The notes below the pieces were generated by a model. It ran no database searches, was not told the origin of the DNA, and was given only the letters and a program-made list of their open reading frames with translations. A stretch of 64,000 bases of DNA, from positions 1 through 64,000 of the IMG/VR virus record IMGVR_UViG_3300035502_000313; one strand, given 5' to 3'. How positions within the stretch are numbered: position 1 is the stretch's first letter; each line of letters begins with the position of its first letter. Both the position numbers and the translations under genes were made by a program. Below are positions 42,506-46,198 of this stretch, in pieces. The DNA is from a virus. Taxonomy: Duplodnaviria > Caudoviricetes.

Positions 42506-43225
42506 TTACTTTTCTATTCTTTTCTTTTTCATAGATAGAGTATATGGAGTCATATAATCTTCTTCTAGTAAGTTGGACATAATACCAGAACCAATTAAAT
42601 ATACATCCACTGTATTTCTAGCAGTCTGAGAAGACTTACTACTTTCTAAATCTTTTAATGATACTTGACCAGTTGTATTAATCTGATTATACATTTTATT
42701 TTTAGCTTCCATATCATCAGCTTTAGCTCTTGTAAACTCTTTTATAGTACAATCCATATTCTGTAATACAAGTGTTTCTAATTCACGGTCAGATTCAACA
42801 CCCTTTGAATTACCAACAATCGCACCAGTCTTAGGATTACGTACATTAATATCTGTATTATAACCAGACTTCTTAGTTATAATCTGTTTAAGCTTTTTCA
42901 GATTAAGATATCCTACCATAGCTTCATTATTTGAAGTTACTGGAACACCATCTGAATTTGTATAAATACTTGGTAGATTAACTTTTTCTAATACTGGTAC
43001 ATTAATGGACTTAAGTGCCTTTATACACTTATCTGGATTAAGTTCTCTTTCAAATGCAGTAGTCTGTAGTCTAAATGGAAGTCTTCTTTTACAGAATTCC
43101 ATAAACTGTTGATCAGACATCTTAGCAAACATTTCTTTATAAAAATTTGAATTAGCCTTAGTTGGATCTATAGCATCAAAAAATTTATATATTAATGCCT
43201 CTGCTTTTTTACGCTGTGCTGTCAT
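42506..43225 (-). CDS. Virion RNA polymerase beta subunit, small C-terminal part
   Basis: MVGYLNLKKLKQ, RNPKTGA, ESDRELETL correspond to beta C-terminal GY.YM.KL..RS..TQQP..GEME region; late promoter 43254-43266. Confidence 0.75.
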   Translation of the reverse strand: MTAQRKKAEALIYKFFDAIDPTKANSNFYKEMFAKMSDQQFMEFCKRRLPFRLQTTAFERELNPDKCIKALKSINVPVLEKVNLPSIYTNSDGVPVTSNNEAMVGYLNLKKLKQIITKKSGYNTDINVRNPKTGAIVGNSKGVESDRELETLVLQNMDCTIKEFTRAKADDMEAKNKMYNQINTTGQVSLKDLESSKSSQTARNTVDVYLIGSGIMSNLLEEDYMTPYTLSMKKKRIEK

Positions 43226-43351
43226 AAAACTATGTTCCTCCTTACATATTATATTATAAAGATGTTAAACTCAAGTGTTTGTAATATATATTATATTAGT
43301 AATAGGATACAGAAATCTGTTATAAAGACCACGTCCTATTGGAGGTATATT

Positions 43352-43621
43352 ATGACTACACTTACAAAAGAACAGCTTATTGAAGAGCTCAAGGATATTA
43401 AGAATTCAGATATGCTTGAGTTCGTAGATGAAACAAAGGAGGTCAAAGCTCTCACATGGAATGGCGAGAGCTTTTTCGACCAGATTTCCAGAAGGATTTT
43501 CCTTCTGGAATCCGTATATGGAATTACCAGGGAGGAGCTCAATCAGATTTTCAAATTTGAAAATCTGAGAAGATTTCTCCCTGCCGAGGCAAGGGGTAGA
43601 AAACTCGTTCTCGGATATTAA
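43352..43621 (+). CDS. Early hypothetical protein (89 aa)
   Basis: ATG 43352 behind GGAGG inside conserved early leader; terminator 43624-43663. Confidence 0.7.
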   Translation: MTTLTKEQLIEELKDIKNSDMLEFVDETKEVKALTWNGESFFDQISRRIFLLESVYGITREELNQIFKFENLRRFLPAEARGRKLVLGY

Positions 43622-43662
43622 TAAAAAGAACAAGACTGTCGGGAGACAGGCTTTTCTTTTTT

Positions 43663-43675
43663 TAACATCACTATA
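43663..43675 (+). promoter_or_regulatory. Late (non-virion RNAP) promoter AAC[A/T]-N6-TAA
   Basis: AACATCACTATAA; more than 20 intergenic matches (e.g. 19032, 48135, 60098 on +; 14318, 25628, 30168, 40787, 43254, 63081 on -); resembles AR9 AACA-N6-TA. Confidence 0.8.
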
Positions 43676-43705
43676 ATAATATATTCTTTAAGGAGGTATA
43701 TAACG

Positions 43706-44539
43706 ATGAATAATCAAGTTATTGGAAGTATTATTCTTGAAGCTGCATCTAATCCAATTGATTTGAATGTTATTGCTGAAAATAATGGTAAAGTTGAAGC
43801 TACAGGTATTATTCAGGATGCTGATGTAGAAAACAGAAATGGACGTATCTATGAAGAGAAAGATTTAAAGCCTGAGGTTTATTCAGATAGAATTCAGAAA
43901 GAACTTATTCCTACTGGTAATATGAGAGGACATGATGGTCACCCATCTTCTTCTGAACTTTCTGTACAGTCTGTTATTGATCCTAAGTTATGCTCTGTTC
44001 AATTCACTAAGATTTGGATGGAAGGTAAAGATATCCATGCTAACTTTAAGGGTACTAACAATGACCTAGGAAGAGCTTTTAATGCTGATCTTCTTGAGGG
44101 TTGCAAACCATCTTTCTCTTTAAGAGCTTTAGGTTCTGTAGATAGAGAAAGAAATGGTAAGTGCTATGTAAGAAATATCAGAATCATTACATGGGATAGA
44201 GTTATTTTCCCTTCTCATAAGAGAGCATATACAACTGGTTTTGTATCACCTAAGAACGAGGGTGCTATTACTGAATCAGCACAAATGTATAATACTCAAG
44301 CTATTAATGAGAACGGTATTCTTATTCCTATTGTGAATAAACAGGTAGTAGACTATATAAAGACTGAGTCTGCTAATGTAAAGAGTATTGTAAATACATT
44401 CGATACATTATATGAATCTGCTATTATTTGTAATGGTGGTAAGAATGTTCAACTTCAGACAACTGATGGTGATAGAATCCTTATAAATCTTGAACAGTAT
44501 ATTCAGGATGAGATTATGAATTATTGTTATAATAACTAA
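43706..44539 (+). CDS. Prohead core protease (T4 gp21/phiKZ gp175 type)
   Basis: GIIQDADVENRNGRIY, GHDGHP, FSLRALG, ITWDRVIFPSH. Confidence 0.9.
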   Translation: MNNQVIGSIILEAASNPIDLNVIAENNGKVEATGIIQDADVENRNGRIYEEKDLKPEVYSDRIQKELIPTGNMRGHDGHPSSSELSVQSVIDPKLCSVQFTKIWMEGKDIHANFKGTNNDLGRAFNADLLEGCKPSFSLRALGSVDRERNGKCYVRNIRIITWDRVIFPSHKRAYTTGFVSPKNEGAITESAQMYNTQAINENGILIPIVNKQVVDYIKTESANVKSIVNTFDTLYESAIICNGGKNVQLQTTDGDRILINLEQYIQDEIMNYCYNN

Positions 44540-44614
44540 CCTATTCCAAGATAGCATTTAGCTATCTTGGATTTTCTATGTTATCCTTATTTGCAAAAGT
44601 TATATATAATATTA

Positions 44615-44953
44615 GTGAGTAGAAGATAAATTATAAGATTTATCCTTAGAAAAGCTACTTTTAGTCTGGATGCTGGAATCTTTTATAGAGTAGGCAGTAG
44701 GTAGAGCAAGATTACTGAGAAATCATTGTACTGTAAAAGTATTTTTGCACGTTTTCCAGTAGAACAGGCAATTGTAGAGTAACGCAATTCTGGAAATGGT
44801 TATTTATGTGCAATTCCCTATATATAATAATGGGAATGTGCATTTTTTACCAATATAAAAAAAGTTCCAGATTTGCGTTGCTGGGACTGGACTTATGATT
44901 TTGATATTCCATTTTGAAAAAGAAAGACTGTCGTGAGATAGGCTTTCTTTTTT
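44615..44953 (+). ncRNA. Candidate ~340-nt structured early ncRNA
   Basis: Early promoter 44600-44615, no RBS-led ORF, nested long-range stems, terminator 44918-44953. Confidence 0.6.
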
Positions 44954-45001
44954 GTCTTATTAGAGCAACTTTTTAATAAATGAAAGGAGATGATACCTAA
45001 C

Positions 45002-46198
45002 ATGGCTAATGGAAACAATAACATGAATATTACAGAAGTTATTGATAAAGAGATTTTACCGATTGTTTCTAATACTCTTTCTAAATCTTTGAGTAAATAC
45101 AAATCTTTAATGAGTAAGTTTATGAACACTAGGTCAACATCTCTCTATGATACTTTCCCTGCCACACGTTGTACATACGGACAACAGGATGCTGATGAAT
45201 TGTATGCTGTATTTGGTAAGTCTGAAAAAGAACTTCAGGAAATTATAAATAAGACATACTATTCTCAAATTCCAAACTTCAATCCAAGAACTGCTAAGAA
45301 TCCAGTAACAGTTCTATCTATCTGTATTATTAAGTATTTCTTAAGTAAGAATGATAAAAAGAATCTTGATGTAGCTATTATTTATATGTCATTTACTGGT
45401 GGATTCTATCCATCTATTCACTATGGTTCTTATCCTTCTGCTGTACCTGCAGATTATAGATGGGTATGTGACTATGTAGTAAATAATGAATTGTCTAATA
45501 AGTTTGACCTTAAGAAAACTGGTTCTGTTATTGGAACTGTTCAATCTATTGGTGCTACTTGGGTAGATGCATATAAAGATAGATTAAAAGGAAAAACAGA
45601 TGATGAAGAATATGTCTATGTAATACAACAGTTACATATGCGTATTAAATCATTCATTCAAAACACTGCTGAGATATATTATAAGTGTTATCAGAATAAA
45701 GAGTATCTTACATATGATAGTGATGATATGTCTGAAGATAATTTTAGACTTACTGAAAATGATAGTACAAAAATCGATGCAATTACAAATAGAACCATGA
45801 CTTGGATTACTACACATGATATAGATTATCGTTTATGTAAGATGTGTGCAGACTCTAACGTTAAAACAGAAGAGATTAAATCTATTATAGAATCTATTGT
45901 AAAGAATACTGATAATATAGATACTGTAAGAGAACTTGTATCTCTAATCATTGCTAACTATTTCAAAGCTAGTAAGAATAAAGACGTTAGAGATATAGAG
46001 TTTATTTCTTTCTCTATTAAAGCTAAACCTAATACAAAAGATAAGGATGTATTACGACAGAATCAAATCGTTGATACATTCTTATGTGAGAATAGTATTG
46101 CTTATAATAGACGTAAAAGTCGTGAAGCTACTAAGAATAGCTATAATAGAGCTGTTTTAACATATTTCGTATTAATCATAAACCAATCAAATAAATAA
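45002..46198 (+). CDS. Late hypothetical (probable virion/assembly) protein
   Basis: ~398 aa; late promoter ~44966; AAAGGAG RBS. Confidence 0.6.
   Translation: MANGNNNMNITEVIDKEILPIVSNTLSKSLSKYKSLMSKFMNTRSTSLYDTFPATRCTYGQQDADELYAVFGKSEKELQEIINKTYYSQIPNFNPRTAKNPVTVLSICIIKYFLSKNDKKNLDVAIIYMSFTGGFYPSIHYGSYPSAVPADYRWVCDYVVNNELSNKFDLKKTGSVIGTVQSIGATWVDAYKDRLKGKTDDEEYVYVIQQLHMRIKSFIQNTAEIYYKCYQNKEYLTYDSDDMSEDNFRLTENDSTKIDAITNRTMTWITTHDIDYRLCKMCADSNVKTEEIKSIIESIVKNTDNIDTVRELVSLIIANYFKASKNKDVRDIEFISFSIKAKPNTKDKDVLRQNQIVDTFLCENSIAYNRRKSREATKNSYNRAVLTYFVLIINQSNK

Follow-up and report, generated by a model that had tools for sequence, protein, structure and literature searches.

What is the role of a promoter and a terminator that enclose a stretch of DNA without a gene? 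The question is raised by positions 44600-44953 of an uncultured phage sequence, where the original prediction placed a stand-alone, highly structured non-coding RNA gene of ~340 nt, expressed at the start of infection. That the unit stands alone, is non-coding and has a promoter of early type and a terminator is confirmed by copies of the promoter motif, by a twin of the terminator and by a check for open reading frames (ORFs). The nature of its product is a separate matter, and depends on how the unit is built, where its parts recur, and how it changes among strains.

The unit and its genomic setting

The DNA analysed here (the window) is the first 64,000 bases of a virus record that is 212,182 bp long and has direct terminal repeats; its GC content is 31%. 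Its sequence places the source as an AR9-like jumbo phage, uncultured and derived from animal-gut metagenomes. The assignment is based on a split RNA polymerase (RNAP) subunit, an S77 prohead protease, a conserved phage protein family, the 212-kb length with terminal repeats, and early and late promoter motifs like those of AR9. The neighbours of the unit are a tubulin-like gene and the split RNA-polymerase beta-type subunit (phrog_3233), and the long ORFs of the window are read well by translation table 11. Close relatives are IMG/VR genomes of 214-225 kb and contigs, from animal-gut metagenomes. Between the terminator of the protease gene and the leader of the next gene, which encodes a conserved protein of 398 aa, lie 450 nt. 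The features of the locus are as follows.

43706-44539: S77-type prohead protease (phrog_207, PF03420)
44545..44580 (+): intrinsic terminator of the prohead-protease gene, an 11-bp perfect stem (44545-44571) followed by a T-run, from a terminator scan and an inverted repeat
44603..44616 (+): putative early promoter of the virion-RNAP type, TATATAAT-ATTAGT, with its predicted start at G44617 and presumed early activity
44617..44675 (+): 'family A' 5' leader module, a two-stem hairpin and the start of module 2 (AGTCTGGATGCT)
44676..44770 (+): non-coding 5' body without significant structure or detectable homologue
44778..44882 (+): extended hairpin of ~105 nt, with stems AACGCAA/TTGCGTT, TCTGGAA/TTCCAGA and TGGT/ACCA
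44883..44916 (+): spacer ahead of the cassette terminator, and site of a 68-nt insertion in the variant strain L037
44917..44953 (+): cassette terminator, composed of an A-tract, a stem, a GAGA loop and a T-run
44967..44978 (+): putative late-promoter-like AACT-(6N)-TA of the 398/402-aa gene, outside the unit
44990-46198: conserved 398/402-aa phage protein (phrog_2921), the downstream late gene

The protease terminator at 44545-44580 is identical across all close relatives and forms the upstream boundary of the unit. On the downstream side, the motif at 44967-44978 has one mismatch to the late motif of the genome, AACA-(6N)-TA, and the segment 44954-45001 is unchanged in L037 and 80-88% identical in relatives L001-L008. 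The 398-aa gene appears to have a late-type promoter of its own. Across the whole genome, 40 gene-proximal copies, that of the protease among them, give a late consensus of approximately AACA-WYTWWA-TAAA, situated ~37-48 nt before start codons (examples in the window lie at 43664, 43266(-), 25640(-) and 9775(-)). This late motif matches the AACA-(6N)-TA of AR9, and supports the view that this uncultured gut phage follows a transcription programme with two RNAPs, like that of AR9.

The early promoter of the unit, TATATAATATTAGT at 44603-44616, reproduces exactly a motif that is found 10 times in the window at one mismatch or fewer, against 1.7 occurrences expected, and in ~13 copies genome-wide. 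Excerpts of the AR9 study give an experimentally defined early consensus for that Bacillus jumbo phage of AAATATATATTAT-(6N)-G+1 (PMC5312081). The promoter has the form characteristic of the AR9-type virion RNAP, ATATAT(T/A)AT followed by 6 nt and a G start, as TATATAAT-ATTAGT-G at 44603-44617, and because the motif fits the AR9 early consensus, the start of transcription was placed at G44617. All other copies of the motif upstream of genes are followed by a short leader, a GGAGG-type site and, within ~60-180 nt, an ORF led by a Shine-Dalgarno (SD) sequence.

At the other end of the unit, the terminator at 44924-44946 is the twin of one at 43632-43654, as had been noticed from the sequence, with 0 such pairs expected by chance. 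The 43632 copy closes a cassette for an 89-aa protein just ahead of the late promoter of the protease, and a third copy lies at 144483-144524(-). The claim that no ORF led by a ribosome-binding site lies between promoter and terminator also stood: the longest open frame is 43 aa, no SD precedes any ATG, and the lack of an ORF extends to all four sequence variants (the window, L037 and two contigs, X1 and X2). Stop-codon recoding was considered as an explanation and discarded, since all three stop codons occur in all six frames.

The unit had been said to resemble neither RNase P, tmRNA, 6S nor SRP RNA, and searches with Rfam (at gathering thresholds and at E up to 10), for tRNAs and for tmRNA (ARAGORN) found none of these. 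The best Rfam score in 44400-45100 is 22.8 bits against a threshold of 55, and the sole Rfam matches in the window are tRNAs. The unit belongs to no described RNA family. Tandem repeats of ~34-36 nt, as in a ToxI-like type III antitoxin, were not detected by Tandem Repeats Finder (0 rows at score 30), and direct repeats within the unit are scattered and only 7-18 nt long. A search of the phage genome for antisense targets found no complementarity beyond the shared modules (promoter and terminator copies). An internal late promoter, AACAGGCAATTG at 44763, was also considered and rejected. It fits the minimal AACA-N6-TG and, poorly, the extended late consensus: TG occurs in 3 of the 40 late promoters, the spacer is G-rich, and the minimal motif arises by chance 0.86 times per kb per strand.

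Fold and shared modules

The transcript had been described as ~340 nt of highly structured RNA, with its pairings nested in one global fold. This description was not confirmed. The fold z-score is -4.76 for the plus strand and -4.50 for its reverse complement, and such near-equal values indicate that the signal comes from local palindromic hairpins. Significant structure is limited to three hairpin modules, namely the 5' module, the extended hairpin and the terminator. The segment 44663-44770 has z-scores of -1.5 (plus strand) and -0.25 (minus strand), while 44771-44895 reaches -5.35, and the single extended hairpin accounts for all excess structure of the body.

The individual pairings fared differently. 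The AGTAG/CTACT hairpin at the 5' end is real and covaries among 8 copies, and the TGCA.ATTCCC/GGGAAT.TGCA hairpin is likewise real. The proposed AGTCTGG/CTGGACT helix comprises five Watson-Crick and two G-U pairs, and comparative support for it is absent. The CTGGAA and TTCCAG repeats, from which alternative folds had been suggested, are present as sequence, but the copy at 44753 falls within a segment of 74 nt that L037 has lost. In general, the long-range pairs of the original prediction occur in the minimum free energy structure and have no comparative support.

At the tip of the extended hairpin, an apical hairpin (44806-44843) is followed by six T residues (44844-44849). It resembles an internal intrinsic terminator and probably acts as one. 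The apical loop at 44818-44832, TATATATAATAAT, resembles the early-promoter core TATATAAT; the corresponding loop in the relative G007 is a palindrome, TAATATATATTA.

The 5' end of the predicted transcript carries a leader module that is found elsewhere in this phage and its relatives. The module, family A, has an outer stem GAGTAG/CTACTT, an inner stem GATAAAT/ATTTATC and a conserved CCTT.GAA..G internal loop, and 7 of 8 family-A copies fold in this way, with stems that differ in sequence. The window copy has the core of family-A module 1 (AGAUA...UAUCCUU.GAA..G with a 5' two-stem hairpin). It matches a profile built from four long leaders that stand ahead of unrelated ORFs (nhmmer, E=7e-4), in an alignment that covers model positions 1-57 only and ends at 44675. 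Family-A leaders head unrelated early genes at 64997, 90994 and 110304 of the phage's own genome, and in L004, L001 and L006. The later family-A modules, which are the GGAACA/TGTTCC helix, the SD and the start codon, are missing from the unit, and the window has AGGCA where L004 has AGGAG, with no start codon after it. The 5' body was also considered as a diverged long family-A leader; window TTTCCAGTAGAACAGGCAA resembles the ribosome-binding site of L004, GTTCCAGAACAGGAG, but this is a hint only, given where the profile alignment ends, and the candidate was dropped.

In its long form the family-A leader measures 160-185 nt and precedes four unrelated ORFs.

G000 (own genome) 90994-91162, L055:95-262: long family-A leader
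G000 (own genome) 110304-110488, L056:105-289: long family-A leader
L004:3376-3538: long family-A leader
L001:305-470: long family-A leader

In each, the covarying 5' two-stem module is joined by another hairpin module and by a long-range helix, the invariant GGAACA...TGTTCC, whose end lies just before the SD. The L001 and L004 copies have no Rfam match (the two own-genome copies fell outside that scan), and the long leader looks like a conserved cis-regulatory RNA of this phage group.

The extended hairpin has relatives of its own. A DNA search gave a 58-nt match in G007, and a covariance model (R1) was trained on the window, L037 and G007 copies of the hairpin. The model scored G007 at 82 bits (E 6e-17), a value for one of its own training sequences, although one first found independently by the DNA search, and identified a further homologue in G003 (30 bits, E 2e-4).

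L026:1458-1564 (G007, 186.7 kb): long, nearly perfect hairpin, homologue of the extended hairpin
L064:1495-1571 (G003, 222.0 kb): long, nearly perfect hairpin, homologue of the extended hairpin

Each of the two follows an ORF directly and precedes tRNA genes, and so occupies the position of a terminator. The G007 hairpin has T-runs in both orientations and looks like a bidirectional terminator. By its long GC-tipped hairpin, its T-run and its occurrence at gene ends, the element appears to belong to a family of intrinsic-terminator hairpins.

What remains without detectable relatives is ~95 nt of 5' body (44676-44770) and the 34-nt spacer (44883-44916), in all ~130 nt. Apart from these, the unit is, to judge by such comparisons, built from reusable leader and terminator modules of protein-coding cassettes.

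Slot variability and drift of the body

The unit is located in a hypervariable slot between two late genes, the prohead protease and the 398-aa gene. In relatives L001-L008, L040 and L042-L050 the slot holds one to four small ORFs, which alternate with early-motif promoters and terminators. The interval spans 0.5-2.2 kb in these relatives, the protease is 84-94% identical (86-94% in L040-L050) and the 398-aa gene is 90-95% identical (L001-L008). The body of the unit is missing from all of these slots, and a search of them against Rfam found no group I intron or other ribozyme. The slot of G004 contains a GC-richer stretch of ~280 nt without an ORF (L004:3053-3330), between a 169/182-aa gene and the next cassette, with a z-score of -2.8, a 17-bp terminator hairpin at its end and no Rfam match. 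Thus, ORF-less filler in the slot is not unique to the window.

The 89-aa early cassette (window 43300-43620) differs between the window and L037 by 12-25 changes per 100 nt, against 1-3 per 100 nt for the flanking late genes. Cassettes appear to be exchanged as divergent alleles.

The body is identical in L034-L036 and L058, and in the portion that L039 holds. L038 and L060 have one inserted base in the unit, L038 has one substitution as well, and L037 is a variant. Elsewhere, the body has no blastn match in INPHARED phages, no exact 20-23-mer match in pattern scans of IMG/VR and no counterpart in prokaryote genomes. A scan of JGI metagenomes returned only one chance 20-mer match, on an unrelated contig of 40% GC. 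G007 was the sole match of a gapped hairpin pattern search, and its hairpin was the only homologue found by whole-record searches of nine complete or near-complete relatives and of G002 (52% complete). The 5' body has no relatives by blastn or tblastx. Exact-protein look-ups of the flanking genes returned only identical copies and the single variant L037 (several JGI and Logan samples). On these searches, the body is found only in one cluster of near-identical strains.

Within that cluster, the body has changed substantially. Relative to the window, L037 lacks 44688-44761 (74 nt), which is about a fifth of the body, and carries a 68-nt insertion ahead of the terminator. Variants also differ by indels of 1 and 2 nt. 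The insertion (L037:1543-1610, between window 44916 and 44917) is a nearly perfect nested hairpin, GAGAGAG...CTCTCTC around GTGAAGTC...GACTTCAC.

Substitutions in the body have accumulated at about the rate seen at synonymous sites. Between the window and L037, 8 of the 159 alignable sites of the 3' body are substituted (5.0%), in a test that has low power with one strain pair and this many sites, and that constraint on structure alone could escape. Synonymous divergence of the flanking genes is 5.2% (9/174) for the protease and 7.5% (18/239) for the 398-aa gene, with pN of 0 and 0.1%. The promoter, terminator and downstream leader together show 0 changes in 95 sites, compared with ~6 expected at the synonymous rate (0/14 in the promoter and 0/33 in the cassette terminator). 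Three of the eight body substitutions add pairs to the hairpin, one yields a wobble, two fall in loops and two break a pair; none is compensatory (0/8). Conservation with compensatory changes, as in a functional non-coding RNA, was not found beyond near-identical strains, and the rate is not below neutral in this one strain pair.

Further variants come from assembled contigs. X1, a 236-nt contig from a gut metatranscriptome library, covers 44673-44900 at ~94%; the same run gave no contig on the flanking 43200-44672 or 44901-45400, which is an absence of cover only and carries no weight here. All sequencing runs that contain the unit had small word shares, and the habitat labels of such low-share runs were left out of account. 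X2 is a 151-nt contig that covers 44665-44795 and has a different sequence upstream, and a third contig, X4, joins the leader module to an L004-like continuation. X2 and X4 show alternative junctions at 44665-44674. The window, L037 and X1 all retain the extended hairpin, to which three changes in L037 and one in X1 add pairs. L037 and X1 are not independent of each other, because they have derived states in common.

Interpretation and known systems

Anatomy, module sharing, slot variability and drift at the neutral rate are direct observations. To account for them, the explanation that we consider best, although with modest confidence, is that the unit belongs to a modular system of early cassettes but lacks an ORF: it would be an empty cassette, or the remnant of one, that gives a non-coding RNA, and not a conserved RNA effector. 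Small self-contained early cassettes, each with a promoter, a structured 5' leader, a small ORF and a terminator, sit between late genes and appear to be swapped among strains. The present cassette retains its promoter, its 5' leader hairpin, a terminator-type extended hairpin and the cassette terminator, with no coding cargo. The injected virion RNAP would transcribe the unit early. Some transcripts would probably end at the T-run after the apical hairpin (~44850, ~235 nt), and the remaining ones at 44953 (~337 nt). The product would go untranslated, and the terminators would prevent early transcripts from running on into the late gene downstream. Any function of the RNA body that depends on its sequence would be weak or absent, and the body would be a remnant or filler from cassette turnover.

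The proposal of a novel RNA effector (a decoy, antitoxin mimic or scaffold) is not supported: the body is restricted to near-identical strains, diverges as fast as synonymous sites, tolerates large indels and shows no compensatory changes, and the unit, apart from the ~130 nt without relatives, consists of shared modules and has no ToxI repeats. A decayed gene, the alternative named alongside it, comes close to the favoured empty or remnant cassette, but no trace of a former ORF was found: tblastx of the unit against the whole genome and the slots of relatives returned only the shared leader and terminator. That the cassette is a remnant is something we infer, because the ~130 nt at 44676-44770 and 44883-44916 bear no trace of a former ORF or of a donor. 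Several points count against the remnant reading. Simple excision of a cassette would not leave the ~130 unique nt; the promoter and terminator are intact in both variants seen whole (the window and L037), when a useless promoter could have been lost; and the extended hairpin is maintained in three variants. The X1 contig may also mean that the RNA, or a relative of it, is abundant enough to assemble, although the RNA library possibly contains DNA.

Some of the same points recommend a functional, lineage-specific early non-coding RNA, abundant and of ~235-337 nt, whose hairpin and/or family-A module titrates a host or phage factor. Candidate factors are a nuclease that recognises dsRNA or hairpins, a defence sensor, or a factor that reads the leader module on early mRNAs. 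We regard this as a tenable but unlikely alternative. It would explain why four variants are all ORF-less, why the two that are seen whole show no change in promoter or terminator when ~6 were expected, why the extended hairpin is retained in the window, L037 and X1 with some changes that add pairs, and why a contig over 44673-44900 came from an RNA library; intergenic sRNAs are, moreover, known from jumbo phages (PMC11512511). Its difficulties are that conservation is confined to one strain cluster, that the body drifts at the synonymous rate and has lost a fifth of its length in L037, and that no pair changes are compensatory, while what structure there is belongs to generic modules of leaders and terminators. 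A search for antisense complementarity within the phage genome found none beyond the shared modules, and the library may contain DNA, with contigs that can give neither strand nor ends nor expression level. Rather doubtful is the more specific idea that an early RNA effector evolved from an emptied cassette, as an abundant, untranslated transcript in which the family-A module, common to early mRNAs, and the long, nearly perfect hairpin are joined to act as a decoy or sponge; its target would be a host nuclease that senses RNA or dsRNA, a defence protein, or a leader-reading factor.

Two further readings assign the unit to a protein or to its neighbour. Type I toxin mRNAs are highly structured and common on Firmicutes prophages, and the unit might in the same style be an mRNA for a small hydrophobic peptide of 30 aa (ATG at 44806, beginning MCNSLYIIMGMC), with its start codon buried in the hairpin. 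The ORF exists (44806-44898), its first 14 residues are hydrophobic, and in L037 and X1 this ATG begins open frames of 39 and 21 aa, respectively. This is nevertheless very improbable, given that no SD precedes it in a phage whose genes have strong GGAGG sites, that single-base indels shift the frame after codon 14 to 25 and length and C-terminus differ in each variant, and that every L037 substitution within the ORF changes an amino acid. By our own estimate, an open run of 21-39 codons is nothing unusual, with a probability of 0.04-0.18 per ATG at 31% GC, and no conserved hydrophobic ORF with a ribosome-binding site, as in type I toxins, was found. The unit could otherwise act in cis, either as a long early leader whose tandem attenuators would allow conditional early read-through into the 398-aa gene or, at the DNA level, as a palindrome that serves as a recombination hotspot or protein-binding site. 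It stands immediately ahead of that gene on the same strand, relatives have members of the hairpin family at other loci, and the fold z-score is equal on both strands, so the palindromes are also features of the DNA. A cis role is nonetheless improbable: two terminators intervene, including the standard one of the cassettes, the downstream gene is expressed in relatives that lack the unit, and the 398-aa gene retains its own late-type motif.

An ORF-less member of the early-cassette system, the preferred reading, has a wider significance. The unit is a cautionary case, in which a promoter, a terminator and a strong fold z-score mimic a novel RNA gene, and the apparent signal of that gene consists of reusable regulatory modules around neutrally drifting filler. 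The locus also documents a covarying 5' leader module common to unrelated early genes. Cassette systems of this kind can leave ORF-less cassettes that are presumably transcribed, as raw material for phage sRNAs; were the RNA of the present unit functional, it would illustrate the birth of an sRNA from an early cassette that had lost its cargo.

Phage-encoded, promoter-driven and structured non-coding RNAs include the phi29 pRNA and the T4 species 1 and 2 stable RNAs, at 120-175 nt. The pRNA is conserved across the phi29 family, shows covariation and has a role in the packaging motor. The unit, in contrast, shows no such conservation or covariation across the near-identical strains in which it is found, and has no Rfam match.

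A closer parallel is offered by the sRNAs of the giant phages 201phi2-1 and phiKZ, which have their own RNAPs. In 201phi2-1, 11 sRNAs have been described, 3 of them intergenic, with functions unknown (PMC11512511). Like the unit, the 201phi2-1 and phiKZ sRNAs (intergenic or 5'UTR-derived) are short, with a promoter followed by a terminator and no ORF (PMC11512511). They have no sequence similarity to it; moreover, they were identified by transcript mapping and one is conserved across genera, whereas the unit is known by sequence only and from one strain cluster.

The transcription programme is most readily compared with that of AR9 (Lavysh et al. 2017, PMC5312081). As excerpts of that study describe it, AR9, like the present phage, has an early ATATAT(T/A)AT-6 nt-G motif, a late AACA-(6N)-TA motif, split multisubunit RNAP genes, and early units interspersed among late genes (PMC5312081). 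The same excerpts make no mention of an ORF-less early unit in AR9 (PMC5312081). The phage studied here differs in being an uncultured gut phage known from sequence, in which dependence on the virion RNAP and the timing of expression are presumed.

The nearest analogues of the cassettes themselves are the promoter-early stem-loop (PeSL) elements of T4-type phages, which are mobile regulatory cassettes (Arbiol et al. 2010, PMC2839356; Comeau et al. 2014, PMC4122927). There are clear differences. The promoter is of the AR9 virion-RNAP type here and of the sigma-70 type in PeSL, and the two share no sequence homology; the present system has a two-stem 5' leader module inside the transcript and a cassette without any ORF; and recombination at the motifs is suggested here by comparison of strains. 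The likeness lies in organisation. In both systems, repeated early-promoter, stem-loop and terminator motifs surround small, unrelated, strain-variable ORFs, and in the unit the same repeated flanks are present with the cargo absent. Both occupy hyperplastic regions between conserved genes, where whole cassettes are inserted, lost or replaced at the motifs from one close relative to another. The locus thus documents cassette shuffling analogous to that of PeSL in an uncultured, AR9-like jumbo phage of the gut.
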